Positions 31,172-64,000 of a DNA stretch of 64,000 nt are shown in pieces; the stretch's first letter is position 1, and each line of letters begins with the position of its first letter. Position numbers and translations under genes: made by a program. Source of the stretch: a phage; sequence record PX418922.1, one strand, 5' to 3'. Under the pieces are notes generated by a model, which made no database searches, had not been told where the DNA came from, and saw only the letters and a program-made list of their open reading frames with translations.

Positions 31172-31270
31172 ATTTTGCCTCCTTTTTAAGTTAACGAATT
31201 TCTAGTATAACACGATAGAGGCTTTATTGCAAGAGGGGGATTTCTCCCCCTCAAAATCATTTGTTAATTA

Positions 31271-32158: not shown

Positions 32159-32387
32159 TTCTTCCTCCTAATGTTATCTCCGGTTTGTATATACGAAGAA
32201 TTATAGCATTTTCATTTTCTTTGTCAACCCATTCTTCATAATCAGGCCATACATGAATCTCTACTCTACTTACAATATCTTCCATTCGCACAGTCCCAAT
32301 GAAATACTCTTTGAGACTGCGCATAATGAAAGCTTCTCTCTCGCGCCAATAATTTTCTATGACTTGAGAGGCAAGCTCGTCGATCAT
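32139..32387 (-). CDS. hypothetical protein
   Basis: 82-aa ORF. Confidence 0.35.
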   Translation of the reverse strand: MIDELASQVIENYWREREAFIMRSLKEYFIGTVRMEDIVSRVEIHVWPDYEEWVDKENENAIILRIYKPEITLGGRSVKLRN

Positions 32388-33178
32388 TTTTTAGCACCTA
32401 CTTTAACAACCCACTCTCCGAACTCTTCAGATAAGAGTTTGTCATAAAGCTCTGAATCTGTCAAGTCTAAATCTTTAATGCCAATAAAACCAACATTATC
32501 ATAAGCATTTGCCAGTTCTTTCAGGAAGCCAAACTTCTCATTACCAACACCAACCATGAACCAATAAATAGGTTTATTCTTATTCTCTTCGATAAGACGA
32601 CGAACAGCACTAGGATCACCATTCTCACCATCCGTCTGGAAGAATACAACACCAGGGGTAATGTCAGCACCTGGTTCAGATACAGCTACAACTTTTTCAC
32701 GCTCTACAGACACTGTTTCAGTTTTACCAAGCAGACGATTAAAGAAGCCTTTCTTTGGAGCCTCCTCTTGTACCACTTGTTTAGTGGTAATATATTTAGT
32801 AACAGTGCCAAAATACTCATCGTAGATATCCGCCATTACAGGGGCGTAATTTGTTCCACCTCCGATACGAACATTACGCATACATTTACCAACATAGTCA
32901 TCGTAAACATCTGCTGTTGCTGGAGTAAGCTCTTGGGAACTCGTATTGAAGGCCCACATATCAATTTGTTGATTATCGTCGAACAGCATACCAAAAGGAA
33001 GCAGTTTACCTACAAAATCACTCACTACCCCATTAGAATATAGACCATGCATACTACCAGAAATATCTAGAGCACATGCTACACGAAGAACAATCTTACC
33101 TTCATTCAGGTTCTTATTCTTTTTCAGAGAGAAAGCAAGGTTTTCTTGACGTTTTTTCAGGCTGATTTTCTCGGACAT
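32384..33178 (-). CDS. von Willebrand factor A domain protein (TerY-like)
   Basis: MIDAS motif 'DISGSM', 'FFQTDGENGD'; N-terminus 'MSEKISLKK' echoes TerD N-terminus. Confidence 0.6.
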   Translation of the reverse strand: MSEKISLKKRQENLAFSLKKNKNLNEGKIVLRVACALDISGSMHGLYSNGVVSDFVGKLLPFGMLFDDNQQIDMWAFNTSSQELTPATADVYDDYVGKCMRNVRIGGGTNYAPVMADIYDEYFGTVTKYITTKQVVQEEAPKKGFFNRLLGKTETVSVEREKVVAVSEPGADITPGVVFFQTDGENGDPSAVRRLIEENKNKPIYWFMVGVGNEKFGFLKELANAYDNVGFIGIKDLDLTDSELYDKLLSEEFGEWVVKVGAKK

Positions 33179-33179
33179 A

Positions 33180-33458
33180 TTATTTCTCCTTCTTAAGTGT
33201 AATATTGGTAACTTCTAAATCTACTTCCACCATATTTGTATCTGGTGGGATGCAATGAGTATAGCCTCGTTGTGCTAGTGATCCATTAATACAGATCGCA
33301 CTGTTTGTGGAATTTTTAATGAACACCAAGTTACGGTAGGTATCCAACCCTGCGTCTTCATAGGCATCATAATACATGAATGTGGCCCCTACGTCAAGAT
33401 CTTCGAAAGCAATAGGTAAATCCTGACTTTTTTCTTCTTGAATATTGAATCTAAACAC
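33180..33458 (-). CDS. hypothetical small protein (paralog of 31889-32158); start inferred at GTG
   Basis: Track ORF is 33180-33524; RBS 'gaggagg' sits 5 nt upstream of in-frame GTG at 33456-33458, giving a length matching the paralog. Confidence 0.35.
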   Translation of the reverse strand: MFRFNIQEEKSQDLPIAFEDLDVGATFMYYDAYEDAGLDTYRNLVFIKNSTNSAICINGSLAQRGYTHCIPPDTNMVEVDLEVTNITLKKEK

Positions 33459-34014
33459 GCATACCTCCTCTACCAATTTTGAAGCCCAAATCGTAAGCTT
33501 CCTTGGTGATCTTTTGTAACTCACTTATAGGAAGTGTTACAAGAGGATCATCTTCTTCAATTTCCATCTTATCATCTTCTGTTTCAATGAGAGTATTATG
33601 CACTTTGTGATAAGGGTTGTCAACACGTTTAAACTTATTCTTTTCTGTGCTGAAAAAACAATCTGGATCTTCTTCGCCATCACCCCAACCTTGGTTAGGA
33701 TCTCCGTCAGATTGTTCTGTAGGGATTTCACCTGTAAAGTACTCTTCCAGCACCATAGCGATACCGTCCCTTGGATTTGAGGAATGCATCAAATCACAAA
33801 CCTTACCCCAATCCATAGCCCATTCGAACCGTTCACGAACGCCGTTTTCATCCTCCTTTCCAGAGAAAACACAACCATAACTATCATAGTTGCCATACAT
33901 CTCTTCAATAACAACACCGTCCTTCAAAAGAAAGAGATAACAAGGTGATCCGTCGAAAGAAGTAGAAAGGGCAGCTTTGCCCGATTCTTTGCACAAAAAG
34001 CTAAAACAACCCAT
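33451..34014 (-). CDS. hypothetical acidic protein
   Basis: 187-aa ORF. Confidence 0.4.
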   Translation of the reverse strand: MGCFSFLCKESGKAALSTSFDGSPCYLFLLKDGVVIEEMYGNYDSYGCVFSGKEDENGVRERFEWAMDWGKVCDLMHSSNPRDGIAMVLEEYFTGEIPTEQSDGDPNQGWGDGEEDPDCFFSTEKNKFKRVDNPYHKVHNTLIETEDDKMEIEEDDPLVTLPISELQKITKEAYDLGFKIGRGGMRV

Positions 34015-34412
34015 TACAAACCCTCCTTCAGATTATCAAGAGCTACAGTGGTTTCACAAAATTCTCCATAAGCTTTATGATGTTCCAGAAAAGCTTCGGG
34101 TCCACCCCAGTCATTATCTTGTGTATTCCAGCCATCAATAAAAGCATCTTCAATGATTGTGATCAGTTCCTGTCGAGTCAACGTAATGGTATCAGGTTTC
34201 TGCGTAGTTTCCACACGGAACCCTGGTTCTTCATAAAAACCTTTAGTTACAATGGATTCTAACTCTTCTGCATCACAGAGGAAGTAGCCACAAAGATAAC
34301 ACCAACCGTCACCATCTTTCATTACTTCATAAACTTCACCACTTGCTAACTTGGTGAAAAGAGTAGGGTCTGTTACTGTAAGTTTTAAAAGAATACCTGT
34401 TGGATTATACAT
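34014..34412 (-). CDS. hypothetical protein
   Basis: 132-aa ORF with RBS 'gaggagg' before ATG. Confidence 0.4.
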   Translation of the reverse strand: MYNPTGILLKLTVTDPTLFTKLASGEVYEVMKDGDGWCYLCGYFLCDAEELESIVTKGFYEEPGFRVETTQKPDTITLTRQELITIIEDAFIDGWNTQDNDWGGPEAFLEHHKAYGEFCETTVALDNLKEGL

Positions 34413-34578
34413 CTTCTTCCTCCTCTAAAATATGGAACCCGTAATTACAATAATCCTGAAAGGTTTCGTGCGCAAGATCTTCTATATCCTCTTGAGACAT
34501 ATCATCTTCAATTTCGATATCCACAACCTCATTGCATCCACACCAAGCAGTTTCAATATTCACTCGTAATATTTTCAT
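34405..34578 (-). CDS. small acidic Cys-containing ORF not in supplied track
   Basis: 57-codon ORF 'MKILRVNIETAWCGCNEVVDIEIEDD...' filling an otherwise empty gap, with overlapping stop/start at both ends. Confidence 0.3.
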   Translation of the reverse strand: MKILRVNIETAWCGCNEVVDIEIEDDMSQEDIEDLAHETFQDYCNYGFHILEEEEDV

Positions 34579-34775
34579 TACTCCTCCTCCTCATTGAAGT
34601 CAATATCTGCAAGGAGTTCGAATTTACGGAAGTTACGACAACCTTCATAAATATAACAATCACGACAAACTGCTAGAACACTTGGGGGATATATACCTCC
34701 CATCGGTGCGAATCGTTTTTCGTCATCATAACGGACACCAATGTCTTCATCAATTATATAGATACGGATTCTCAT
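34578..34775 (-). CDS. hypothetical small protein
   Basis: 65-aa ORF. Confidence 0.3.
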   Translation of the reverse strand: MRIRIYIIDEDIGVRYDDEKRFAPMGGIYPPSVLAVCRDCYIYEGCRNFRKFELLADIDFNEEEE

Positions 34776-35884
34776 TTACCAAGCCCTCGTTTCACAGCAG
34801 CTACCATCCCGTCTTCCAGAGATTGAACTTCATTAATATAATCAACACGAGCAGCACGGGCTTCCGTATTGATGCGGTTAGTTTCTTCCAACATCTTAAC
34901 CAAGTTTTCCTGATCGTGACGCAGAGTTTCAATATCCAACACTTGACGGTTAGCCAGTGCTGCTGCTTCGATCTGATTCTGTGTGGCAAGATCGCTACCC
35001 AGTTTAATTGCCAGGTTAAATTCATCAAGAACGTTATTCTGCGTCTCTGCTGCTTTCATTTGACGTAAGCTCTCGATATACATTGAGAAGTTAGCAGAGT
35101 AAGCAGGAATAACATTATTTACTATGTTACGCGCAGATCGCATTAAGCTTGCAGAAACTTTTTGCATACCTTGTACACGCGGTCCCATTTGGACACACAG
35201 TAGGCGCAATGCTTTTAAATCTGCAATACGAATCTCCAGAAGATCCAAAGTATCTCGGATCACTTGTCGCTGTTCTACTGCATCTTCTGGAAGAGCAGCC
35301 AAAGCTTGTTCTTCTTTTTCATAGGTTGTTGTTAGAAGCTGCATATCTCGGTTCAAACTTGCAGCATATTGTCCAATAGCTTGATGTAGCTTTTCAAGAT
35401 ATACCAAAGAATCTTCTTCTTTGCGAATATCCATTTGAAGGTTCTTTACCAACTCTTCAATACGGTTATTAACATTATCAAACTCCCCAAACAGGTCTTC
35501 TTTCATACCCATAACTTTTTTAATGAGTTTAGTAATACCCTTGCTTTGTTTAATAGAGTTTGGATCAAGTTGTTTTGCCTGTTTAATCAAAGCTGTGAGT
35601 CGTTCACTCATCTGATCGCCTTGATTACTACGTTGATGTTTTAATACCTCGGCATTCAAGGAACGCAAGGTTGTTCCTGCCTCTGCCCCAATCTCTTCGA
35701 TCTCTTGTCGGGTCATAGAAGGCAAAACTGGAACTTCTTGCGGTGCGGCTGGTGCATAAACAGGACTGGCATCTAACACGCTTGGAGCGAATACAGATTT
35801 ACTTGCATCTGTTGTTGCAGCAAATACGCTCATTTCAGGCTTCTTCTGACCGCCAGTAGCTGCTTTTAAAAATGGACTTGTCAT
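34772..35884 (-). CDS. TelA-like (toxic anion resistance family) coiled-coil protein
   Basis: 370-aa largely helical ORF of TelA-like size, located between TerD/vWA and TerC genes; assignment mainly contextual. Confidence 0.45.
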   Translation of the reverse strand: MTSPFLKAATGGQKKPEMSVFAATTDASKSVFAPSVLDASPVYAPAAPQEVPVLPSMTRQEIEEIGAEAGTTLRSLNAEVLKHQRSNQGDQMSERLTALIKQAKQLDPNSIKQSKGITKLIKKVMGMKEDLFGEFDNVNNRIEELVKNLQMDIRKEEDSLVYLEKLHQAIGQYAASLNRDMQLLTTTYEKEEQALAALPEDAVEQRQVIRDTLDLLEIRIADLKALRLLCVQMGPRVQGMQKVSASLMRSARNIVNNVIPAYSANFSMYIESLRQMKAAETQNNVLDEFNLAIKLGSDLATQNQIEAAALANRQVLDIETLRHDQENLVKMLEETNRINTEARAARVDYINEVQSLEDGMVAAVKRGLGK

Positions 35885-36471
35885 TCTTCATTCTCCTCTT
35901 CTGCATCTCTTATATATGGTGAAACACCGTACTCTTTAGCTACTTTAACCCAATCGTCCCATTTATACAACCATAATTTTCCTTCGGTCCCTTCTTTATC
36001 TGATTTCAACCACATATTAGGTTGCTTACCCGGGTACATGCGATTAGGTTTACGATTATAACCTCTAACACATCTTGTCGCAAACCTATCTACCAGAACA
36101 AGAACATATTTATACTCGTGGTTCAACGGCTCTTTGGAAGTGGCTTTAGGATTAGCCCCTAATTCTGCTGCCAGTTTTTGCCAATGAGCACCGTGCCTAC
36201 TAAACTTACCCATACAACCATCAATAGCATGAGCAATTTCGTGCTTCATTGTATCCACGATCATATCTCTTGTGGAGTTCTTATGCAAGTGCCAATTTAC
36301 AACAACAATTTTATCTCGGTAGTTGCACCAACCGAAAGAGTTATTCACTTTGTTTCTAACACAAGCTTTATATCCTGCTTCACGTAACATGTTGTAGTAA
36401 ACAGGAAAATCTTCTTTTATTTCCTGCATCACTTCCCACCACAAGAGTTGCAAGTCTCTCTCGGTATGCAT
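35881..36471 (-). CDS. SprT-like zinc metallopeptidase-like protein
   Basis: 'MKHEIAHAIDG...RHGAHW' HExxH motif in SprT-like context. Confidence 0.45.
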   Translation of the reverse strand: MHTERDLQLLWWEVMQEIKEDFPVYYNMLREAGYKACVRNKVNNSFGWCNYRDKIVVVNWHLHKNSTRDMIVDTMKHEIAHAIDGCMGKFSRHGAHWQKLAAELGANPKATSKEPLNHEYKYVLVLVDRFATRCVRGYNRKPNRMYPGKQPNMWLKSDKEGTEGKLWLYKWDDWVKVAKEYGVSPYIRDAEEENEE

Positions 36472-36474
36472 AAC

Positions 36475-37068
36475 TTACACCTTAAAAGCGAAATGCGTGG
36501 TCGTGGCTTCAAAATCAGGGCCAGATAAACTTGCACTGAAATCTGAAATATTTGTAATTAAAAAGCTTTTATGCATACCTAACACAGCCACGCTTTCAAT
36601 ATCTTCTACTAACATTTCAATCATGTTAGAAACATGGCTGAACGTATAGTTTTGTTTTTTGATGGTGTAGAAAGAAAGACTCCCACCTGCTGTATAAGAT
36701 ACCTCTTCAAAATCTTTAATCGTATATTGTGTGCCATCAGTAAAGAAAATGGTAGCTTTATTAGTAGCACGTTTCTTGTTTTTTGGTCCTTTTTTACGTT
36801 TACTGCGAGTAGGCAAACCGTTTGGGAACACCATAGCTACAAATTCTTCAGCAGAAACCTCCTTACCGAAATCATAACCATAAGAAACAGCGTCTATAAA
36901 CTCGTCATCTTCATTTTTAAAATAATGGAAATAGGGCCGATTTGAAAGATTATCAAGCATCTTATGCTCGTCCACAGCAGAGAATGTATCCCTCAAAGCG
37001 CGTGTGATTTGCAAAGCATTAGGCAACCTTTTAACACCTACGATGGAAGTACGAATAGAAATTGTCAT
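36475..37068 (-). CDS. hypothetical protein
   Basis: 197-aa ORF. Confidence 0.4.
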   Translation of the reverse strand: MTISIRTSIVGVKRLPNALQITRALRDTFSAVDEHKMLDNLSNRPYFHYFKNEDDEFIDAVSYGYDFGKEVSAEEFVAMVFPNGLPTRSKRKKGPKNKKRATNKATIFFTDGTQYTIKDFEEVSYTAGGSLSFYTIKKQNYTFSHVSNMIEMLVEDIESVAVLGMHKSFLITNISDFSASLSGPDFEATTTHFAFKV

Positions 37069-37082
37069 TGTTTTTCTCCTTA

Positions 37083-37520
37083 TTAACGCCGCTTGCTACG
37101 AGATGAACTCTTTTTACTTAAAGGGCTATTGTAAGATTTACGAGTTGTATAGCTACTATTTGTTTTAAAAGTTTGTCTCGGCTTTTCATAAGTTTTTATC
37201 TCTTGTTTAGGCTTACCATAAAAATTAGTTTTCGGTTTAGGTGTATTATAATGCTTATTAATAATCGTTCTGTTATCGTTATAATCCCCACTGCTACGAT
37301 TACTACCACCACTCATCATATGCCCTAACAACATACCTGTAGCAAACTCACTAACACCGCTACTACTAGAACCGCCACCATTGTTGATAATAGTTGTATC
37401 TCCGTCAGATCCTTGTTGAGCGTATTGTTGAGGAGGTTGTTGGTATTGTGCAGGATTTGTTTCATCCTCGCAAGCTGTTAAAAAGATACAACCAATTAAA
37501 ATCAGGGCTAGTTTTTTCAT
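37083..37520 (-). CDS. lipoprotein (Gly/Ser- and Lys-rich)
   Basis: Track ORF extends to 37595; likely start 'MKKLALILIGCIFLTAC' with lipobox LTAC (ATG at 37518-37520). Confidence 0.5.
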   Translation of the reverse strand: MKKLALILIGCIFLTACEDETNPAQYQQPPQQYAQQGSDGDTTIINNGGGSSSSGVSEFATGMLLGHMMSGGSNRSSGDYNDNRTIINKHYNTPKPKTNFYGKPKQEIKTYEKPRQTFKTNSSYTTRKSYNSPLSKKSSSRSKRR

Positions 37521-37707
37521 ATTTGCTTTCCTCGTTTTGGCTATTAATACATCTGTGTTTGAAATCTCCAGAGAAGCAATAAAGTTGCTCTCCATCTCGG
37601 TATAAACTCACTTTACTGCCGTTGATTACGCTTGTCAATACAAAAATTACAACAAACAACCCTATTGCAAAACAGATATTTTCAAACACAACCAACAAGT
37701 ATTTCAT
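37462..37707 (-). CDS. small membrane protein
   Basis: 81-aa ORF with N-terminal TM segment; overlaps lipoprotein gene start out of frame. Confidence 0.3.
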   Translation of the reverse strand: MKYLLVVFENICFAIGLFVVIFVLTSVINGSKVSLYRDGEQLYCFSGDFKHRCINSQNEESKYEKTSPDFNWLYLFNSLRG

Positions 37708-38054
37708 TTTAAAAACACCTCATCATCAGTCTCATTATCCCAGAAGAACAAATCCCAACCATTTGGATCATTCCATTTGGCTGCTGGAGAAGTCCATATT
37801 TGCTCAATATCAATATTCAAAACTTCACCGTTTCGTTTTGAAACAGCTTTAGTTAATTCCCAACGAGATACAGGCTCTACTTCTCCTGAACCACTTCCAC
37901 AACAAGCTACAACATTAGGAGGCAAATTAATTGGATCTTTGGTCACAATCATAACGCTTACCCCAGGGTAAACTTTTGAAAGATAATCTAAAACGTAATC
38001 CACATCACCAGATAAATCCCAAACAAGTTCTTGAATTTCATCAAAATTATTCAT
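37704..38054 (-). CDS. hypothetical protein
   Basis: 116-aa ORF. Confidence 0.4.
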   Translation of the reverse strand: MNNFDEIQELVWDLSGDVDYVLDYLSKVYPGVSVMIVTKDPINLPPNVVACCGSGSGEVEPVSRWELTKAVSKRNGEVLNIDIEQIWTSPAAKWNDPNGWDLFFWDNETDDEVFLK

Positions 38055-38065
38055 AAGTCTCTCCT

Positions 38066-38090
38066 ATAAAATAGCCTCCCGAAGGAGGCT
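38066..38090 (-). terminator. possible terminator hairpin after TerC gene
   Basis: 'agcctcccgaaggaggct' hairpin; on minus strand followed by 'attttat'. Confidence 0.4.
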
Positions 38091-38096
38091 CATCTA

Positions 38097-39071
38097 TTAA
38101 ACAGCAGCTTCTTCTTTTTCAGGGAAGATAAAGCTTGCAATAACACCAAGAGCTAATGTGCCTAGAACAATCATCAGACTTACGTTAGGGGAAATATCAT
38201 GCGGGAGGAATGACCACTTGGCATGAAGTGTTTCACCGAACGGGTGATACATAAGTTTAGCACCGACAAATACCAGAACCACAGCAACAGCTTTCTCTAA
38301 GTGAACCAGATATTTCACAGCTACACTTAACACAAAGAAAAGTGCACGTAAACCAAGAACAGCCATCAGCATTGCAGAATAAACTAGCAGAGGTTCTTGT
38401 GTCACACCGATCACAGCCGGAACTGAATCAAAAGAGAAGACAATATCTGTAAGCTCAATAACAAACACACAAAGAAGAGCAGGAGTTGCATATTTAATAC
38501 CATTCTTAATGGTGATGAACTTTTCACCATCCAGTGCATTGTGCACAGGCAGAACTTTACCTACTAAACGAACAGCCCAATGCTTAGAGTAATCAATATC
38601 CTCTTCTTCGTCACCACCTTTGATGATAGCCACGGCAGACCAAGCTACAATCAAACCGAACAACACTTGGACCGACCAATGAAGGTTAAACAAAGCGGTC
38701 CCTGCTGCAACAAAAATACCTCGGAAGACAATGGCTCCTGCAATTCCCCAAAGTAAAATCTTATGTTGGAGATGTGTGCTCTTAATTCCAAAGCTTGCAA
38801 AAATTGCCATGAACACCATCAGGTTATCTACAGAAAGACTCTTTTCCAACACATAGCCACTTAGGAAAAGCGCGGCAAACTCTTTACCATGTTCTACCCA
38901 AATGAATGCGTAATATCCTAAAGCTAAAGCAATCCAAAAAACAGACCAAAGCAAAGCAGATTTAATTCCAATTTCTTTATTCTCTTTATGACCAAAGAAA
39001 TCAATACCAATAGACAATGCTAAAATACCAACTAAAACAACTACATCAATAATGGGGAAACCAAGTTGCAT
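38097..39071 (-). CDS. terC: TerC-family integral membrane protein
   Basis: multi-TM ORF with 'EKSLSVDNLMVF' and 'FSFDSVPAVIGVT' motifs characteristic of TerC/Alx family. Confidence 0.7.
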   Translation of the reverse strand: MQLGFPIIDVVVLVGILALSIGIDFFGHKENKEIGIKSALLWSVFWIALALGYYAFIWVEHGKEFAALFLSGYVLEKSLSVDNLMVFMAIFASFGIKSTHLQHKILLWGIAGAIVFRGIFVAAGTALFNLHWSVQVLFGLIVAWSAVAIIKGGDEEEDIDYSKHWAVRLVGKVLPVHNALDGEKFITIKNGIKYATPALLCVFVIELTDIVFSFDSVPAVIGVTQEPLLVYSAMLMAVLGLRALFFVLSVAVKYLVHLEKAVAVVLVFVGAKLMYHPFGETLHAKWSFLPHDISPNVSLMIVLGTLALGVIASFIFPEKEEAAV

Positions 39072-39090
39072 TATTTTCTCCTTTCTCTTT

Positions 39091-39149
39091 GCGGGGAACC
39101 ACTCCCCGCCTCATGTGATACATCTTACTCTATTCTAAAACTTTGTCAA
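39091..39149 (-). promoter_or_regulatory. sigma70-type promoter plus 5' hairpin driving TerC gene (same architecture as 60.7-64 kb array)
   Basis: minus strand reads 'TTGACA-16nt-TAAGAT gtatcacatgaggcggggagtggttccccgc ...aaaggagaaaataATG'. Confidence 0.6.
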
Positions 39150-39152
39150 CAC

Positions 39153-39374
39153 TTATTTTGAAGAACTTGAGGAAAAGATCCCACGTAGTACAGCCATGAT
39201 AAATGCCACACACACCACAGTCCAGAAGGTGACAGGAACAGTGATATCTGTGTGACCCATCATTTCAACAACGTAGTTATAAGCCAGCAGCAGAAGCCAT
39301 GCTGGAATCATACTAATCAGAAAAGCAATAACAAACACAATAATCACTGCAAGAATACCTGCTAAAACGCCCAT
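39153..39374 (-). CDS. small membrane protein
   Basis: 73-aa ORF with two hydrophobic helices. Confidence 0.4.
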   Translation of the reverse strand: MGVLAGILAVIIVFVIAFLISMIPAWLLLLAYNYVVEMMGHTDITVPVTFWTVVCVAFIMAVLRGIFSSSSSK

Positions 39375-39387
39375 AATATTTCTCCTC

Positions 39388-39861
39388 TTAAAGTTTATAA
39401 ATAGTCACATCGTGACCTGTTTTTACTAAAGTTTCTTCAATCATCACTTCAATGATAGCCCAATTACCTCCTGCCAACCCTGCTCCAATCATAGGTAAGC
39501 CGATCTTACATTTTTGGTCACGGAGAAGCAAATCATTAGCCATAGCTATTAGTGCATCGTACAAGGCATCATAGTCCAACTGACGACCTTTAGCATTGTA
39601 TCCATAACGATACTGCCCGTATAGATTATATACCAAAGGATCTGATTGTTCGTCTGGCACCCCTAAACTAAAACAACCTAGTTTACTTTGATCACCAGCC
39701 ATTGTGTCTAAATCTGCCGCATATGCATAAGGGAATGCTCGTTTAATTTGCGGAGCAATTCCTGCTCCCATATTACACATACAATTGCAACAATGAGCAA
39801 TAACAGTTACTTCACCTGCTTTAGCGGCATCGATAAGATTACCTGTTTTCATTTTAAGCAT
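39388..39861 (-). CDS. macro-domain-like protein (ADP-ribose binding/processing)
   Basis: 'GNLIDAAKAGEVTVIAHCCNCMCNMGAGIAPQI' and 'IGLPMIGAGLAGG' resemble macro domain motifs; start moved to internal ATG with RBS 'aaggag' (track: 39388-39927). Confidence 0.4.
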   Translation of the reverse strand: MLKMKTGNLIDAAKAGEVTVIAHCCNCMCNMGAGIAPQIKRAFPYAYAADLDTMAGDQSKLGCFSLGVPDEQSDPLVYNLYGQYRYGYNAKGRQLDYDALYDALIAMANDLLLRDQKCKIGLPMIGAGLAGGNWAIIEVMIEETLVKTGHDVTIYKL

Positions 39862-39874
39862 TTTTAGCTCCTTA

Positions 39875-40702
39875 TTACAGAATGTGTTGTTTTGTGTAAC
39901 GATCCAAGAATTCAAAGTTTTCAGCATACTTTGAAATTCGGTTGTAACCTTCTCCCAAACATCCGAAGAAAAGTTGCTCTACATAGTAGTGTGGCAATTG
40001 GCTAAGAATGATTTTGAAGTCTTCGTGATTTTGGCCCATAAGATACTTAATAGGACGAACAAGACACTGTGCATCACGTTCTTCATTAATCATTTTAACA
40101 AAAGCTTCTGGTGTATTAATATAATTAAAATTCAGTTTAGCTTCGGTATCTGCTTGATTACCTTCATATTTTGCAAAATACAGGAAGTAAACATCATTTT
40201 TAACTTGATTTTCATCAAGGATCTCAATCAGTTTGTCTTCGTGCGTTCCAGTGATATTTACATCATCAATGAATACAAGCTTCTTATCACCCCAGAATTC
40301 TTTGTTGCAGTAGAATGTATCCCCATCAATAAGTTTCTTACGACTAGCTTTATCCAAGAAGCCATAATCATTAATATAGCTAACTTTACGATGAATAATA
40401 TCCAGTTCTGCTGAACGACCTTGATCATATTGTGCTTGCAACATATTAAAGTAATTAATAAAATGATCTGTCATCATTGTGGCAGCATTATGCACATGGT
40501 TGTAAGGAGAAGGAATGATAACAAATTGTTCCCCAATATGTTTCATTGCCACTTGAGCAAAAAACTGAAGTGCCAATTCTTTACCCATACGACGCGCGGC
40601 TTGGTTACTACCAAATTTCAATTTTGAATAATCTTGGATATCAAAAGTAGCAGTTTCCAGGTCATCAAATTTATTTGCAAAAATTTGAGTTTGATTACGC
40701 AT
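39875..40702 (-). CDS. phosphoribosyltransferase-domain protein
   Basis: 'KLVFIDDVNITGTHE' matches PRPP-binding motif of type I PRTases. Confidence 0.45.
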   Translation of the reverse strand: MRNQTQIFANKFDDLETATFDIQDYSKLKFGSNQAARRMGKELALQFFAQVAMKHIGEQFVIIPSPYNHVHNAATMMTDHFINYFNMLQAQYDQGRSAELDIIHRKVSYINDYGFLDKASRKKLIDGDTFYCNKEFWGDKKLVFIDDVNITGTHEDKLIEILDENQVKNDVYFLYFAKYEGNQADTEAKLNFNYINTPEAFVKMINEERDAQCLVRPIKYLMGQNHEDFKIILSQLPHYYVEQLFFGCLGEGYNRISKYAENFEFLDRYTKQHIL

Positions 40703-41351
40703 TTACAATTTCTCCTCTTTTAAGTTTCTCTAGTAAGTCGTTAGGGTTCTTAATATGACAGAAGTTAAATCCTAAGTCAACACATTTTCCATCATATTCT
40801 TCACTATCGCCTACGTGCAATACTTCGTGCCCTAACAGAGGGATCGGAGAATACGTGAGCGTGCGAGCAAAGAATCGCGGATCTGGTTTACAAAGTAAAG
40901 CTTCATCCGAGAAATGGGTGAACTCAAAACAATTCCAACTATCAAACTTACAAGCACGACGCAGGATATCCCCTGATATAAAGTTGGTATTGCTCTTAAT
41001 ACTCAAATCATAACGTCCCGAAAGATACAGCAAGTACATCGGCAGATCCACGGCTACGTGTGGTGGAAACTTAAGGAACCACTGTTCACACTCGAAACGA
41101 AGCTTTGCAGACTTCCAAGGTGTTATCCCAAGTTCAGAACCAAGTTTTTCCCAAGCGTATGCTGCACACTCGGCTTTGCCTTGAAGTGCTGCATTATCCA
41201 GTTCCTTTTTGATCTTCTTATAAGCTGCTCTTGCTTCCACTTCCGTAATATCTCCATATTTTGCGATAGTCCAGGCTCGCATGTCTGCGTAATTGGAGTT
41301 TGCTGTGATCAGTGTGTTCCATACATCAAAAGAGATATGTTTAATAGTCAT
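40695..41351 (-). CDS. HAD-superfamily hydrolase-like protein
   Basis: N-terminal 'FDVWNTL' (motif I-like) and C-terminal 'VGDSEEYD' (motif IV-like). Confidence 0.45.
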   Translation of the reverse strand: MTIKHISFDVWNTLITANSNYADMRAWTIAKYGDITEVEARAAYKKIKKELDNAALQGKAECAAYAWEKLGSELGITPWKSAKLRFECEQWFLKFPPHVAVDLPMYLLYLSGRYDLSIKSNTNFISGDILRRACKFDSWNCFEFTHFSDEALLCKPDPRFFARTLTYSPIPLLGHEVLHVGDSEEYDGKCVDLGFNFCHIKNPNDLLEKLKRGEIVNA

Positions 41352-41352
41352 A

Positions 41353-41958
41353 TTAAGCCCACCATGCGTCTAAGTTAAGATTACTGTCCACTACCACTTG
41401 TTCTATGTGGTAGCCTTTTATCTGTATCCCACTGTTCAAGAGCATATCATACGCTTCATTGAAACGCAACTTATCTTCTGCGGAATATAAGCGAGCATTA
41501 TAAAATCGGTAATCAATTTCTTCAGCATTAGAAGAAATACGGAAGAAGTTTGTTTCTACTTCGGGATCACTTGCTGAAGTCTTAATGTGAACTTCTCCGT
41601 AATTTTCTTTACTTAGATCCATGAAAAGAACACAGGCAACATGTTTAAACATTCGTTCCAGTTTGTAACGAACAACATTGAAACCTGCATTCTCAAGTTT
41701 TTCTACACACTGCAACATTAAAGTAGTGTCGAGATCGCTTTGATACTTTGTTAACATACGATCACGTTGAGACTTTGTATCCCGATGTAAATCAATTGTT
41801 GTGCATTTGGCACCAATAATCTTAGCTGCTTTCATCAACTCTTCAGAACTAACGTTAGATAAAGTAAGATGAAAATGGGCTTTCCACACTTTTTTAGCAG
41901 GGACACCAAAAGATTTATCCCCACTATTCGGCATGCTGACTACTACACTATGTTGCAT
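41353..41958 (-). CDS. hypothetical protein
   Basis: 201-aa ORF; 'HFHLTL' could be a 2H-phosphoesterase-like motif but unconfirmed. Confidence 0.4.
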   Translation of the reverse strand: MQHSVVVSMPNSGDKSFGVPAKKVWKAHFHLTLSNVSSEELMKAAKIIGAKCTTIDLHRDTKSQRDRMLTKYQSDLDTTLMLQCVEKLENAGFNVVRYKLERMFKHVACVLFMDLSKENYGEVHIKTSASDPEVETNFFRISSNAEEIDYRFYNARLYSAEDKLRFNEAYDMLLNSGIQIKGYHIEQVVVDSNLNLDAWWA

Positions 41959-41973
41959 TACTTATCTCCTCAC

Positions 41974-42198
41974 TTAAAATGGAAGTCTTTGAAGTTCATC
42001 TCCTCCGATATCAAGTAATTTAGCAACATCTCGATCAGAAAGCAACTCTTTTCTTTGTAAAATATCCACAAGGGTTGCAAGAATGTCCTTAACGTCCCGA
42101 TCACTGTTCTTCAAAAGTTCTCCTGCCGTCCCTACTCTATCTCCTACAGCAAAATATGTAACCATGAAACCTCCTAAGTTAATCTGATTGCCAACCAC
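41974..42198 (-). CDS. hypothetical small protein
   Basis: 74-aa ORF. Confidence 0.35.
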   Translation of the reverse strand: MVGNQINLGGFMVTYFAVGDRVGTAGELLKNSDRDVKDILATLVDILQRKELLSDRDVAKLLDIGGDELQRLPF

Positions 42199-54898: not shown

Positions 54899-55237
54899 AT
54901 GTTTAGTAAAGAGATGAGAGACGTAATTGCCACTCTGGTAGTTGATCATGGTGTTGAAGTTGAGCGTCACGTTTGGAAAGATGAGCCTCCTTTCTTTGAT
55001 TTGGCATCACGGGCTAAAAGTCACATGTATCTCCTTGAAGATGATAAGGATTTTATTCTGCGTATGCGTTATGATCGAGAGTTTAGAATTCCTCTTGACA
55101 CAGATCCTGATGATGTAGTATTGTGGTTGGCAGAGCATTTCGCATTTAACGCTCTACATGGAAGAAGTTTTGGTAATGAACGTTGGGATACCATTTGTCG
55201 TAAACATAATATTGAACCAGAATACGGGAGTATGTAA
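54899..55237 (+). CDS. hypothetical protein
   Basis: 112-aa ORF. Confidence 0.45.
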   Translation: MFSKEMRDVIATLVVDHGVEVERHVWKDEPPFFDLASRAKSHMYLLEDDKDFILRMRYDREFRIPLDTDPDDVVLWLAEHFAFNALHGRSFGNERWDTICRKHNIEPEYGSM

Positions 55238-59590: not shown

Positions 59591-59721
59591 TCCTATACAA
59601 ACCCTTGTCTTTTTCAGTTTGCATCACTAGGATTCGATCTAAGTAGGTTCCTGAAGGTCTACCAATAAGATTAAAGGTTATCTCAAATTACCACTACCTG
59701 TTATCTCAAAAATTCCTCAAA

Positions 59722-59919
59722 TTATTTAAACTTTTTAAGAATTTACAAAAGTGAAAGTTGAAAACCAAAATTTAAAGTTTAGGAAAATTATCTTAAAATG
59801 TCAGATACAAAACAAAACTCAAAAGTCAAGGAAAATTTTAAAAATTTTGCGCGCCCACAGTATTTAAAGTTTTTTTGCTTTTACAAAAATGAAAGTACAA
59901 AAGCAAAATTTAAAGTTTA
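59722..59919. repeat. two ~60-bp AT-rich direct repeats (iteron-like)
   Basis: 'tttacaaaagtgaaagttgaaaaccaaaatttaaagttta' (59742-59781) vs 'tttacaaaaatgaaagtacaaaagcaaaatttaaagttta' (59880-59919), each preceded by 'atttaaa[c/g]ttttt'. Confidence 0.6.
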
Positions 59920-59940
59920 CAAAAATTTATGCAGATGGGA

Positions 59941-59957
59941 ATGAGAAGAGTTCTCAT
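59941..59957. promoter_or_regulatory. perfect 7-bp inverted repeat
   Basis: 'atgagaagagttctcat'. Confidence 0.4.
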
Positions 59958-59962
59958 GTGGA

Positions 59963-59988
59963 AATGCAAATGATAATGATTCGCATTT
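59963..59988. promoter_or_regulatory. Fur-box-like palindrome 1
   Basis: 'aaatgcaaatgataatgattcgcattt' contains GATAATGAT matching first half of Fur consensus GATAATGATAATCATTATC. Confidence 0.4.
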
Positions 59989-60024
59989 AGGTTTATAAAT
60001 GAGATTGATTCTTATTTAATAAAG

Positions 60025-60047
60025 TAAATGATAATCATTCTCATTTA
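60025..60047. promoter_or_regulatory. Fur-box-like palindrome 2
   Basis: 'taaatgataatcattctcattta' matches Fur consensus at about 16/19 positions and is near-palindromic. Confidence 0.5.
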
Positions 60048-60304
60048 GAGAATGACGCGCAGGGGCGGTGTTTGTCTCGCGCTCCCGTGTCCCCTCGCCA
60101 TGTACTAAGAATAACAGATCCAGCCAGGAAAGCAAGCGATTATTTTATCTTTACATTTCTTTACAAATATATAGCGCCCAGCCTACCGGCGATCAACCTT
60201 CCAACCAGTGCCCCTGGTATGTTAGCCCCGCCTTTACGCCGTGGGGTGGCGCTTCCTCTTCTGTATGTAAAACAGTATAAGCCCTATCCCTGGGCTTGTC
60301 AAGA

Positions 60305-60680: not shown

Positions 60681-60738
60681 TTGACGTTCGCCAGGTGGCG
60701 GCATAATATTTACCACGTAGCGCGGCAATGGTGCCGCT
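60681..60738 (+). promoter_or_regulatory. early-type promoter P1 with 5' hairpin
   Basis: TTGACG-17nt-TAATAT then 'gcggcaatggtgccgc' hairpin. Confidence 0.6.
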
Positions 60739-60758
60739 CACTATTTGGAGTTAAGATC

Positions 60759-60956
60759 ATGGCAACATTGCACATTGTGGCGAAAGCTGGACAAATCAAC
60801 GTAATAGTAAACGGTTTTACTGAGTTCAGTCATCCCCAGGATGATCATGAAACGGTTTTATCTTTCATTGATTCCCTGTTAGAAATGGGAGTCATTACAG
60901 AAGACCAGCACGCTACAAAATGCAAGCGCGTTAATCAAATTGCAGGGATAGAATAA
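60759..60956 (+). CDS. hypothetical small early protein
   Basis: 65-aa ORF starting 'MATLHIV' after RBS 'ggag' (track start 60669 lies upstream of promoter). Confidence 0.5.
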   Translation: MATLHIVAKAGQINVIVNGFTEFSHPQDDHETVLSFIDSLLEMGVITEDQHATKCKRVNQIAGIE

Positions 60957-60962
60957 AAAGTA

Positions 60963-61017
60963 TTGACAACAAACAACAACCTGATAAGATGTATCACATA
61001 GGGGCGACAAGCGCCCC
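60963..61017 (+). promoter_or_regulatory. early-type promoter P2 with 5' hairpin
   Basis: TTGACA-16nt-TAAGAT 'gtatcacata' then 'ggggcgacaagcgcccc' hairpin. Confidence 0.6.
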
Positions 61018-61041
61018 GCCTAACAGAAGAGAGAAATCATC

Positions 61042-61314
61042 ATGGCATCATATAGCGCAACAATGATCGTAACTGGCACCACTGGTAAACCTATGAGCGG
61101 TGGCGGATCTTTCGCTAATATTAATATTGACGGGCGCTTATCCCTGGACGCAGCGATCACCGTGGCGCGGGAAACATTTAAGAAAGAATGTAAATTCAAT
61201 AAACAAGATTATCTCGGTTTCGCTATTGAAAAAACCGCGCGCTTTGTTGATTATAAAAGCCCGAAAATGGTTGATACTACACTGAAAGCGCAAGATGTAG
61301 CCTTTTTGCTTTAA
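61042..61314 (+). CDS. hypothetical small early protein
   Basis: 90-aa ORF 'MASYSATMIV...'. Confidence 0.5.
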   Translation: MASYSATMIVTGTTGKPMSGGGSFANINIDGRLSLDAAITVARETFKKECKFNKQDYLGFAIEKTARFVDYKSPKMVDTTLKAQDVAFLL

Positions 61315-61326
61315 GGCTTGACATTA

Positions 61327-61382
61327 ACGAATAATTTGTTAATATGTTACATAAAGCGGGAATAGTTCCCGCTATTTGTAAG
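61327..61382 (+). promoter_or_regulatory. early-type promoter P3 with 5' hairpin
   Basis: TTGACA-16nt-TAATAT then 'agcgggaatagttcccgct' hairpin. Confidence 0.6.
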
Positions 61383-61390
61383 GTGGTAGA

Positions 61391-61648
61391 ATGTTTTACA
61401 TCAAATTAAAAGGTCACGTGATCGCGTTCAAAGATAACGCTTTTTACAGATTAGCAAAATATGCGTTAATACATCCCCACTATGTTTATATAAGGGGGCG
61501 TGATGAAATAAATATTTTTGATCAAACAACATGCGAAAACATCGAGATCCGCAAGGTTGGCGTACGTGATTATCGTACATCTTTCTACCCTTGCAAGGAT
61601 TCAGCAAGTCTTTTTAAAGTATGCCAATTGTTGAAAAAAGGTGGTTAA
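61391..61648 (+). CDS. hypothetical small early protein
   Basis: 85-aa ORF. Confidence 0.5.
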   Translation: MFYIKLKGHVIAFKDNAFYRLAKYALIHPHYVYIRGRDEINIFDQTTCENIEIRKVGVRDYRTSFYPCKDSASLFKVCQLLKKGG

Positions 61649-61649
61649 T

Positions 61650-62207
61650 ATGGGCCGCGAATATGTGATCCAGTCTTGGGTAAAACATGAAGCAGATGAT
61701 CCGCGCATCATTCCCGATCATCTTATCGATGAATCCACGGGATATAGCGGTGAGCAAATAGGTAACAGATTAGCACGTAGTAACGGCAACGTAAAAGCGC
61801 GTTATGTGCGCCCTGGCTGGCTGGCAAATGGTAACGCTGATTTATCCAGTGCGGAAGATGCGAGCGACGGCGCGAAAGATAATCCTTTGTACAAAATTGA
61901 TCCGGCTTTTCGTGTCCTGGATGAATACCCCAGCAAGATAGCGGCGCTCGATCAGGCCCTGGAAAGTAAGCGCATCACCTGGACCGCTTACAACATGGCA
62001 AAAAACGTACTTGATGGTAAATTGATTCAAGCTGAAAGAAAATTAGCCAAAATTGCAGCCATAACCCAGGAGGAAGACGAGGAGACAACGGAAGAGGAAG
62101 AGTACGAAGAGATCCCGCCGTTGTTGTGTGTTGATGCTTTCCCTGATTATCAGCCGACAGAGGAAGAAAAAAGGATCGCACTAGAAAACTTTGAAAATAG
62201 TCTTTGA
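61650..62207 (+). CDS. hypothetical early protein with acidic C-terminal region
   Basis: start at ATG after RBS 'aaaggtgg' (track 61641); 'EEDEETTEEEEYEE' tract. Confidence 0.5.
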   Translation: MGREYVIQSWVKHEADDPRIIPDHLIDESTGYSGEQIGNRLARSNGNVKARYVRPGWLANGNADLSSAEDASDGAKDNPLYKIDPAFRVLDEYPSKIAALDQALESKRITWTAYNMAKNVLDGKLIQAERKLAKIAAITQEEDEETTEEEEYEEIPPLLCVDAFPDYQPTEEEKRIALENFENSL

Positions 62208-62259
62208 CATATCGCCGCCACTGGCATAATATTTACCACGTAGGGCGGCAATGGTGCCG
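62203..62259 (+). promoter_or_regulatory. early-type promoter P4 with 5' hairpin
   Basis: TTGACA-17nt-TAATAT, near-identical to P1 over ~40 bp, then 'ggcggcaatggtgccgc' hairpin. Confidence 0.6.
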
Positions 62260-62289
62260 CTCATAGTGAAATTATGCAAGAGGTTTGCA

Positions 62290-62388
62290 ATGATTAATAA
62301 AGAAAATAGCTTGACGGTTGGAACGATTAACGCTATCATTCTTGCCGTTCCATTTTGGATTGTATTAGCGGCTATTATTTTCTAAAAA
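62290..62388 (+). CDS. 32-aa hydrophobic peptide (not in supplied track)
   Basis: 'MINKENSLTVGTINAIILAVPFWIVLAAIIF' downstream of P4 with RBS 'agagg'. Confidence 0.3.
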
Positions 62389-62394
62389 ATATTC

Positions 62395-62455
62395 TTGACA
62401 ACGTTTTTTAATCTGATAAGATGTATCACATAGGGCGGCGGAATACTTCCCCGCC
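62395..62455 (+). promoter_or_regulatory. early-type promoter P5 with 5' hairpin
   Basis: TTGACA-16nt-TAAGAT 'gtatcacatagggcggcggaatacttccccgcc'. Confidence 0.6.
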
Positions 62456-62476
62456 AAAACAAAAAAGGGTAACACA

Positions 62477-62839
62477 ATGAGCAAGCAAATCAATACTATC
62501 ATGTTTAATCTGGTATCTTTCCGCGATGATATGAAAAATTTACCACGTGAAACGGTTGATATTCATGTTTCAGCTTATCGCGCCCTTATTGATATGTTAC
62601 CGCTAAAACGTGATCAACATGCCGCTAATATGATGCTTAATGCTATGCTTAAAAAGATGATTCAAACGGATCTCACCCTGGCGTATGAGTATCAAGGGCG
62701 CTTATATGCAACTTACAACAAGGCGGTACCTGGTCTGGGAAGTACCGAAGAGTTGCACGGCTTAAACCTGGATCAAAACACTTGGGATAGTATGCGCCGC
62801 GTTATGGTATGGGCCGAAAGCGGTAAAATTTACGAATAA
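62477..62839 (+). CDS. hypothetical early protein
   Basis: 120-aa ORF. Confidence 0.5.
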   Translation: MSKQINTIMFNLVSFRDDMKNLPRETVDIHVSAYRALIDMLPLKRDQHAANMMLNAMLKKMIQTDLTLAYEYQGRLYATYNKAVPGLGSTEELHGLNLDQNTWDSMRRVMVWAESGKIYE

Positions 62840-62845
62840 AAACGG

Positions 62846-62905
62846 TTGACATTGTTTAAAATTCTAGTATAGTTTACCACATAGGGCGGGAAGTGGTTTC
62901 CCGCC
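62846..62905 (+). promoter_or_regulatory. early-type promoter P6 with 5' hairpin
   Basis: TTGACA-16nt-TATAGT then 'gggcgggaagtggtttcccgcc' hairpin. Confidence 0.6.
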
Positions 62906-62927
62906 AACAATGAAAAAGGTTATCATC

Positions 62928-63293
62928 ATGGCTATTAATATTAATGTTTCCGCTTATGCTACCCTGGCTAACACGGCTAAAATTGAATTATCCAGCATTG
63001 AGGCGGTGCATATTAGCGCCCGTCGCTGGTTTCAACGGTCCTACGGTAACACATATTTTTCTTTAATGGTTGACGTTGAGATCGGCGGTAAACTGATCGA
63101 GGTGGTTAACGTTCCGTTTCAATATGGCTATGGTGATCATTTTGATACCGTCGCCCTAGAAGAGTTTAGCAAGGTTATCAACCTGGAAGGTAAAGAGTTT
63201 TCAAATTATGCCTACCTTTCCCGTTTTTGCCGTGACAATGGGATCACTGTATACAGTCATGCGAGCGATGTAAAACGTAAAAAAGATTTATAA
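62928..63293 (+). CDS. hypothetical early protein
   Basis: start placed at 'MAININ...' with RBS 'aaaaagg' (track 62910); N-terminus resembles 63713 ORF. Confidence 0.5.
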   Translation: MAININVSAYATLANTAKIELSSIEAVHISARRWFQRSYGNTYFSLMVDVEIGGKLIEVVNVPFQYGYGDHFDTVALEEFSKVINLEGKEFSNYAYLSRFCRDNGITVYSHASDVKRKKDL

Positions 63294-63299
63294 AAAGCA

Positions 63300-63358
63300 T
63301 TGACAGCACGAATAAAAAGAGTAAACTGTATTACATAGAGAGCGGGAACACTTCCCGC
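63300..63358 (+). promoter_or_regulatory. early-type promoter P7 with 5' hairpin
   Basis: TTGACA-16nt-TAAACT then 'agcgggaacacttcccgc' hairpin. Confidence 0.55.
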
Positions 63359-63382
63359 CTCACTGAAAAAGAGAGAAAAATC

Positions 63383-63622
63383 ATGGCTAAATCTAAAATG
63401 TACAACGGTCACAAAAACAAAACTCATTGGAATGTAAGCCTTTGGATTAATAACGATGAATCGTTATACCGGTTGGCCCAAGATTTTATTAACGCTAATG
63501 CTAATCGTAATGATGCGGCGCGGGATATGATGCTTTTTCTGGAACAAACTGGACAAGATAAAACGCCAGACGGTTTCAAATATAGCACTACTGCGATCCG
63601 TGCCGCGATGGTTGGAATGTAA
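63383..63622 (+). CDS. hypothetical small early protein
   Basis: 79-aa ORF. Confidence 0.5.
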   Translation: MAKSKMYNGHKNKTHWNVSLWINNDESLYRLAQDFINANANRNDAARDMMLFLEQTGQDKTPDGFKYSTTAIRAAMVGM

Positions 63623-63631
63623 TAAAAACAG

Positions 63632-63691
63632 TTGACAACGTTTAAAATTAGTGTAAGATGTATCACATAGGGCGGGAAGTGGTTTCCCGCC
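63632..63691 (+). promoter_or_regulatory. early-type promoter P8 with 5' hairpin
   Basis: TTGACA-16nt-TAAGAT then 'gggcgggaagtggtttcccgcc' hairpin (identical to P6 hairpin). Confidence 0.6.
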
Positions 63692-63712
63692 AAAACAAAG
63701 AGATTAAAGATT

Positions 63713-63940
63713 ATGGCTATCAATATTGTTCGCGTATCCGGCACCGTTGGCACTTCCCAGGTTATTGCAGTTGTAACAAACAAAAAGATTAATGATGTAT
63801 GTGAGATCTTGAATAAGTGGGCTATTGCTAATTTTGGGGAATATGCAAGCGTCGAGTACATCGAATCCTACCAGGTGCCAACCATCAGCCTAACCGATCT
63901 CAACGTTGATCGCCTGTTATGCCTGGATGAATTGATCTGA
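63713..63940 (+). CDS. hypothetical small early protein
   Basis: 75-aa ORF 'MAINIVRVSG...'. Confidence 0.5.
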   Translation: MAINIVRVSGTVGTSQVIAVVTNKKINDVCEILNKWAIANFGEYASVEYIESYQVPTISLTDLNVDRLLCLDELI

Positions 63941-63949
63941 AAAAGATTG

Positions 63950-64000
63950 TTGACACCGGAAAGAAAAAGAGTAAACTGTATTACGTAGGGCGGCAATGGT
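63950..64000 (+). promoter_or_regulatory. early-type promoter P9 (hairpin truncated by window end)
   Basis: TTGACA-16nt-TAAACT 'gtattacgtagggcggcaatggt'. Confidence 0.5.

Follow-up and report, generated by a model that had tools for sequence, protein, structure and literature searches.

A structurally conserved leader hairpin behind a predicted sigma-70 promoter of the TerC/Alx gene in a Phapecoctavirus

What does a promoter followed by a hairpin, a combination otherwise found before small genes elsewhere in the same DNA, do in front of the TerC gene of a coliphage? The window considered here is the whole stretch of 64,000 nucleotides analysed from sequence record PX418922.1; it matches phAPEC8 and vB_Ec-G1 at 98.6-99% identity over positions 38000-42000, and represents a Phapecoctavirus (Stephanstirmvirinae), a coliphage of the phAPEC8 group. 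The TerC promoter is already on record as a prediction, and the hairpin has been noticed earlier under labels that are inconsistent with each other. In the phAPEC8 record, 39 bp at the TerC promoter are marked as a 'putative host dependent promoter determined with MEME'. The ASO2A record likewise has this promoter, and it labels the TerC hairpin a 'rho-independent terminator predicted by WebGeSTer'. At other sites of phAPEC8, 20-nt 'putative promoters determined with PHIRE' were annotated directly behind sigma-70 promoters, and these PHIRE 20-mers are the hairpin itself, (G/A)TAGGGCGGCAATGGTGCCG. What is new here is that the leader hairpin is conserved as a structure.

An earlier note on this DNA had read a promoter and a hairpin in front of TerC, and this reading is borne out: TTGACA-16 nt-TAAGAT occupies 39149-39122 of the minus strand, the hairpin follows 12 nt on, and the start codon lies at 39071. 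The -35 hexamer TTGACA (39144-39149, minus strand) agrees with the consensus at 6 of 6 positions, and the -10 hexamer TAAGAT (39122-39127, minus strand), behind a 16-nt spacer, agrees at 4 of 6 with the key A2 and T6 present. With 10 of 12 matches to TTGACA/TATAAT, the element is, as judged from its boxes, a near-consensus sigma-70 promoter. The arrangement TTGACA-N15-18-TAAGAT occurs five times in the window, compared with 0.07 occurrences expected. The orthologous site has retained this promoter in Phapecoctavirus, Justusliebigvirus and Klebsiella-infecting Stephanstirmvirinae, with flanks that diverge; TTGAC is invariant in the TerC orthologues of four phage lineages, and TTGAC together with a TAnnnT -10 is present in all 9 of 9 orthologues. 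Upstream of the promoter stands a 73-aa membrane ORF (39153-39374, minus strand), whose TAA stop codon (39153-39155) lies 3 nt before the -35 hexamer, and neither a terminator scan nor reading of the sequence found a terminator between this ORF and the promoter. The interval 39101-39450, which comprises the 73-aa ORF and the promoter, is approximately 82-88% identical to most Phapecoctavirus relatives and has flanks that are 96-100% identical; its allele is found at 99% identity or more in only four records, and it forms a small mosaic block that ends near the cassette.

Between the -10 hexamer and the stem lies a conserved segment, gtatcacatgag (39110-39121, minus strand). The RNA polymerase of E. 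coli prefers to start 7-8 nt after the -10 hexamer, at a purine that follows a pyrimidine. Among 45 distinct cassettes, 41 have a pyrimidine at position 7 and a purine at position 8 after the -10 hexamer, with C at position 7 in 37 and a purine at position 8 in 43. Because this C-7/purine-8 step is conserved and coincides with the start preference of the E. coli polymerase, transcription of TerC is predicted to start, probably, at the A at 39114, which is position 8 after the -10 hexamer. The first paired base of the hairpin falls 10-13 nt after the -10 hexamer in 33 of the 45 cassettes, and the stem starts 9-13 nt after it in the majority of copies, the distance at TerC being 12 nt; the predicted number of unpaired 5' nucleotides is 2-5 in most copies, approximately 5 at TerC and 0 in the TerC copies of Klebsiella phages. 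A search of the window's large ORFs and of the phAPEC8 annotation revealed no phage RNA polymerase, and from this, together with the near-consensus sigma-70 promoter, we reasonably infer that the host polymerase would fire on DNA entry. A literature search retrieved no transcript or transcriptomic data for Phapecoctavirus or Justusliebigvirus; early expression of TerC is a fair expectation from the promoter sequence.

The hairpin itself, GCGGGGA-gtggt-TCCCCGC, occupies 39091-39109 of the minus strand (stem arms 39109-39103 and 39097-39091). It contains seven G-C/A-U pairs, or eight with a G-U closing pair and a UGG loop, and has an energy of approximately -14.3 kcal/mol; the whole predicted leader folds into this single hairpin. 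On its 3' side follows aaagagaaaGGAGaaaata, and then the ATG at 39071 (minus strand). This purine-rich stretch (39072-39090, minus strand) is unstructured, and its Shine-Dalgarno sequence GGAG (39081-39078), located 6 nt upstream of the ATG, remains free of pairing in the minimum-energy as well as the centroid fold. The hairpin sequence, with no more than two mismatches, occurs three times in the window compared with zero expected. Its tail is poor in T: none is present in the 8 nt after the TerC stem (aaagagaa), and 32 of 40 distinct hairpins have zero or one T in the 8-nt tail. Because a T-run is missing, the leader hairpin is not a canonical intrinsic terminator. The terminator scan called none of the leader hairpins and did call the terminator downstream of TerC at 38090-38073, and the reading of the hairpin as a canonical intrinsic terminator was rejected for either strand.

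Conservation of the hairpin was evaluated in TerC orthologues from Schickermooser and tuntematon, P3322, EmilieFrey, two IMG/VR contigs of the Justusliebigvirus type, the Klebsiella phages KP13-26 and KP2025, and two further IMG/VR contigs; the IMG/VR scans, which used TerC both as one protein sequence and as an alignment, yielded only five loci. All of these leaders show the same order of TTGAC-type -35, -10, hairpin, A-rich leader and AGGAG-ATG. Their stems differ in sequence, being GCGGGGA(A), GCGGAGGA, AGAGGGAG or AGGGAGAG, and the stem of the Klebsiella relatives is unrelated to GCGGGGA. In the nine distinct TerC orthologues, pairing was nevertheless present in 94.4% of cells, compared with 51-64% after the 3' partners were slid by 1-3 columns; both-sided, that is, compensatory, changes were found in 5 of 8 pairs, and the covariation score was reached by 0 of 500 shuffles. 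Stem stability was uniform, from -12.4 to -15.2 kcal/mol, and across the 40 distinct cassette hairpins, too, it varied little. The leader hairpin of TerC is under selection as a structure.

The strand on which the structure acts may be suggested by the G-U pairs, of which there are 15 among the 40 distinct hairpins. Owing to these pairs, the sense strand gave the better fold in 21 cases and the antisense strand in 5, an asymmetry that derives mostly from one repeated hairpin type, the cases not being independent. Because sense folds beat antisense folds through G-U pairs, these data point to an action of the hairpin in the sense RNA. A covariance model (R1) built from ten copies recovered array copies outside its seed; its alignment A9 includes antisense palindrome hits, which inflate the counts of compensatory changes, and these counts were set aside. 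Concerted evolution of the TerC and array hairpins, which would be expected from a common sequence-specific reader, was considered and rejected: KP13-26 has GCGG-type array stems but AGAGGGAG at TerC. The TerC hairpin thus evolves independently, under structural constraint.

The gene behind the cassette (38097-39071, minus strand) encodes a TerC/Alx-family membrane protein of 324 aa (Pfam TerC, E 3e-40), which is assigned to the Alx subfamily (NCBIfam TIGR03718 R_switched_Alx, 319 bits versus a cut-off of 246). Its stop codon is followed, 7 nt on, by a canonical intrinsic terminator that consists of AGCCTCC-ttcg-GGAGGCT and the tail ATTTTAT (38066-38090, minus strand). This terminator is annotated in two relatives, ASO2A and Schickermooser, and at the aligned position EmilieFrey has GCCCC-ttcg-GGGGC and then TTTAT, as read by eye from the alignment and not folded. 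Because a canonical terminator stands directly past TerC, the cassette most likely drives TerC alone as a monocistronic unit, and co-transcription of TelA (34772-35884) and of the vWA-TerF-like gene (32384-33178), both downstream, from the TerC promoter is unlikely; the tentative placing of the downstream Ter genes in the same early class is thus not supported, given the terminator at 38090-38066. TerC lies within a long minus-strand block of replication and nucleotide-metabolism genes. At the head of this co-directional block stands the 53452 promoter, which shares the TTGACA-16-TAAGAT boxes, and read-through transcription of TerC from the block is also possible.

The surroundings of the gene show features of their own. 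On the minus strand, 32384-41958 holds a Ter-linked set of vWA-TerF-like, TelA, SprT-like, TerC/Alx, Macro and ComF-like PRTase (PRTase_3) genes, together with two ORFs annotated as (HAD-type) hydrolases in relatives, and NrdD and NrdG (phAPEC8 annotation) adjoin this set of a lytic phage. The set recalls the Ter-associated nucleoside-metabolite gene sets of bacteria. When tuntematon was compared with 38107-38960 of the window, the flanks were 97-100% identical, and the body of TerC was 48-83% identical per 100-nt window. The tuntematon TerC is a replacement by a Justusliebigvirus-like allele, with crossovers in the conserved N- and C-terminal coding stretches. The cassette was considered as a crossover site of this allele swap and is not supported as one, the crossovers sitting inside the coding sequence.

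Does the TerC element belong with the promoters at the other end of the window? A paralogous promoter-hairpin array occupies 60681-64000 of the plus strand, where each cassette precedes a small ORF; the -35 hexamers start at 60681, 60963, 61318, 62204, 62395, 62846, 63300 and 63632, and a further cassette at 63950 is cut by the window end. The earlier note had put this array 21 kb off, and it does start 21.5 kb away, at 60681, on the opposite strand. As had been proposed, TerC is preceded by a genuine member of the cassette family found in front of the small genes at 60.7-64 kb. The description 'nearly identical' slightly overstated the likeness: over 59 nt, identity of the TerC cassette amounts to 85% with the cassette at 63632, 83% with that at 62395 and 63-76% with the others. 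Because the similarity reaches into the spacer, the sequences suggest that the TerC and array cassettes are homologous by common descent. Calling the array genes 'host-takeover-like' was a guess, all eight matching PHROG families of unknown function.

A fold of -12 kcal/mol or lower was found behind 9 of 22 strict TTGACA-N16-18-TAnnnT sites, compared with 1.07% of background 36-nt windows, and eight of these nine strongly folded sites are the TerC site and seven array cassettes. Within the window, the hairpin-type motif CAYRTAGRGCGG (no more than one mismatch) has a single, chance match outside the array, at 55149, and in the array each copy lies right behind a promoter. Throughout the 35-kb minus-strand block, TerC has the sole array-type cassette. 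The same cassette is arrayed in the Justusliebigvirus EmilieFrey and in the Klebsiella phage KP13-26, and the Vequintavirus NHEP1 (1519-1577 of locus L021) carries an almost identical one, TTGACAACGTTTTAAATTAGTTTAAGATGTATCACATAGGGCGGGAAATGGTTTCCCGC. Because NHEP1 belongs to another subfamily, its sequence suggests that cassettes or early-gene modules have been exchanged between coliphage lineages. Within the array, a block at 62360-63632 holding three genes, each with its own cassette, is replaced in phAPEC8 (145360-145900) by two unrelated genes, and homology breaks at the cassettes 62395 and 63632.

Some further structured elements were noted in the array and elsewhere. The cassettes at 60681 and 62204 have a GC-rich spacer between -35 and -10 in addition to the downstream hairpin (that of 62204 was read by eye). 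The scan placed a 5-bp stem-loop at 60688-60701 in the spacer of the former, which is the usual position in the PeSL cassettes compared below, and the GC-rich spacer sequence of the latter lies at 62213-62226. Just upstream of the array, the non-coding stretch 59718-60050 contains nested direct repeats, among them four palindromic units of approximately 21 nt, AAATGA(G/T)AnnGATTCnCATTT, 29 nt apart at 59940-60048; the unit at 60024-60042 resembles a Fur box with three mismatches. These repeats could be an operator or iteron array. On the minus strand at 31204-31253, the hairpin GAGGGGGA-gaaa-TCCCCCTC directly precedes a TTGCAA-17-TATACT promoter-like site and then a ribosome-binding site; the order of promoter and hairpin is reversed there.

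On balance, and with slightly better than even confidence, we favor the reading that the TerC element is a sigma-70 early-type expression cassette in which the leader hairpin caps or insulates its own transcript close to the 5' end and does not act as an intrinsic terminator. The E. coli polymerase would bind TTGACA/TAAGAT and most likely start at the A at 39114, and a GC-rich stem-loop (about -14 kcal/mol), set about 5 nt back from the 5' end, would form in the first approximately 25 nt of the RNA. The unpaired purine-rich leader would offer a strong GGAG to the ribosome, leading to translation of TerC/Alx, and the canonical terminator would halt the transcript right past the gene. TerC would in this way be an autonomous one-gene unit within the replication and nucleotide-metabolism block, expressible upon DNA entry. 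In its own sense RNA, the stem-loop may limit 5'-end-dependent decay (by RppH and RNase E), and it may also keep the folding of the leader independent of context.

A stabilizing role of this kind has precedents in the host. In E. coli, mRNAs such as ompA and papA are protected by pairing of their 5'-terminal bases, an established means of slowing 5'-end-dependent decay (references in PMC3997798). The stabilizing stem-loops of ompA and papA (Emory, Bouvet and Belasco 1992, cited in PMC3997798) resemble the TerC leader as predicted here in having a stable hairpin near the 5' end, in the unstructured leader and ribosome-binding site that follow it, and in a sequence that varies while pairing is kept. 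By contrast, the predicted approximately 5 unpaired nucleotides at TerC exceed the few that are known to be tolerated, and the hairpin here is part of a repeated, copyable cassette. RNase E has no difficulty in passing an internal stem-loop that lies orthogonal to its path (PMC9943677), and any protection by the hairpin would therefore depend entirely on the number of nucleotides before the stem, and so on the actual start site; at TerC, approximately 5 unpaired 5' nucleotides may suffice for RppH and RNase E to engage.

Among known systems, the cassette is closest to the PeSLs of T4-type phages (RB49/phi1, T4/PST and KVP40/nt-1; PMC2839356, PMC4122927), which likewise are repeated intergenic cassettes of a promoter and a stem-loop. 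Both kinds share the order of upstream stop codon, A-rich stretch, strong sigma-70-like promoter, GC-rich stem-loop, Shine-Dalgarno sequence and ATG, and both are found mostly in a variable early region, ahead of small ORFs to which no function is assigned. The replaced array block 62360-63632, with its breaks at cassettes, recalls the module replacement of PeSLs, whereas at TerC the crossovers fall within the coding sequence. However, the present cassettes occur in Stephanstirmvirinae and Vequintavirinae and not in T4-like phages, their hairpins are without a T-rich tail, and one copy serves a conserved gene of a known family, TerC, outside the variable region. In PeSLs, the stem-loop may lie upstream of the -35, between -35 and -10, over the -10 or immediately ahead of the start (PMC2839356), whereas the present stem-loop has a near-fixed place 9-12 nt after the -10, within its own transcript, which is none of these positions. 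The cassette hence differs from PeSLs in geometry, and probably in the role of its hairpin.

By analogy with PeSLs, the stem-loop could instead be an insulator that attenuates or terminates upstream transcripts, so that the cassette sets the dose of its own gene, and that also serves as a homology patch for module swaps; we consider this unlikely, although it is the most serious competitor of the capping role. T4-type promoter-stem-loop cassettes terminate transcription in reporter assays and recombine mutually (PMC2839356), and at TerC the upstream ORF and the promoter are not separated by any other terminator. The hairpin is missing where insulation would not be needed: the 53452 promoter at the divergent junction, which has no co-directional transcription upstream, has the same boxes without a hairpin, as do the divergent-junction promoters 7404 and 7408 of KP13-26 (locus L019), and the 24705 promoter, without a hairpin as well, has a canonical terminator just upstream. 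Absence of the hairpin at these sites also fits an insulator against upstream read-through. Against this, the first-in-array cassettes carry the hairpin despite having no co-directional gene directly upstream. The tail of the hairpin is A-rich and without a U-tract, and the hairpin lies past the predicted start, where an efficient terminator would abort the cassette's own transcripts; the PeSL stem-loop instead precedes the start site (PMC2839356). As regards a linker function, the swap of the three-gene block 62360-63632 relative to phAPEC8, with its breaks at cassettes, and the almost identical cassette of a Vequintavirus speak in its favor, but the tuntematon crossovers at TerC fall within the coding sequence and not in the cassette.

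Another reading is that a phage or host protein recognizes the RNA hairpin or the DNA palindrome (+5 to +25) and switches the whole early class off or on jointly, for example when early gives way to middle expression. This we regard as improbable. In phages of E. coli and Klebsiella and in a Vequintavirus, the arrays retain the motif CAYRTAGGGCGG and GCGG-type stems, a conservation of sequence that exceeds what structure alone would need, and the position just past the start is typical of operators. Recent copying between repeats can, however, also explain the conservation within the array, and no candidate protein came to light. The TerC orthologues pair with unrelated stems (AGAGGGAG versus GCGGGGA), even where the phage's own array is of the GCGG type, which makes it unlikely that one sequence-specific reader serves all cassettes. 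Scarcely credible, finally, is a phage-specific promoter or a plain intrinsic terminator as the GenBank labels have it (phAPEC8 'PHIRE promoter', ASO2A 'rho-independent terminator'): apart from these existing labels it can draw only on a loose and partial resemblance, by our own comparison, of TATCACATAGGG to the T7-type promoter core CTCACTATAGGG, short of a match to the 23-bp consensus, and the T7-like or PHIRE promoter is excluded because no phage polymerase was found, with a single-subunit RNA polymerase absent from the phAPEC8 annotation and the window's large ORFs, the PHIRE 20-mers simply being the hairpin directly behind sigma-70 promoters, and a plain terminator lacking its defining T-run.

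The capping cassette that we favor can also be placed beside what is described for related phages. Early promoters of Vequintavirinae (rV5, PMC3606486; Certrevirus CB7/CR3, PMC7344957) are of the TTGAC-N17-TATAAT type with A-rich upstream sequence, as here, and they too belong to phages without their own RNA polymerase and are clustered in a small-ORF region. Promoters of this type are described as located mainly in the presumed early region, and a few of them stand at genes of replication and nucleotide metabolism (PMC7344957). A leader hairpin on these promoters is not described in the relevant passages of the two papers (PMC3606486, PMC7344957), and in this the present cassettes differ.

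Searches against Rfam returned no riboswitch or other family for the whole window at the gathering threshold, and neither yybP-ykoY nor any other match for 38900-39500 at E up to 10. The yybP-ykoY Mn2+ riboswitch is the usual leader of bacterial Alx-type TerC genes. The phage resembles this arrangement in that the 5' leader of its Alx-subfamily TerC gene contains a structured RNA, but this leader is only approximately 45 nt long and consists of one simple hairpin without an Rfam match. In the phage, a constitutive cassette seems to have taken the place of control by a ligand.

These findings leave the understanding of phage transcription unchanged; the feature is ordinary in kind, and its predicted early sigma-70 promoter had already been annotated. 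They do correct inconsistent labels, under which one hairpin family was called a 'phage promoter' in one record and a 'terminator' in another, and they define a compact natural expression cassette, consisting of promoter, leader hairpin, purine-rich leader and ribosome-binding site, that is found in two coliphage subfamilies. The cassette also offers a clean, testable case of whether a 5'-proximal hairpin protects phage early messages. A bolder prediction, which we hold to be distinctly doubtful, would make the hairpin an identity tag for the whole class of early transcripts made by host polymerase in Stephanstirmvirinae and Vequintavirinae. If true, phage messages would be spared from infection-induced RNA decay, or the hairpin would be read by a phage factor that times the early class, and TerC/Alx would have been recruited into the tagged class in place of ancestral riboswitch control. 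For the biology of the phage, an Alx-type TerC metal-homeostasis protein stands here in a self-contained unit without the usual riboswitch of its subfamily, which hints that the protein is wanted from the start of infection, whatever the metal status.
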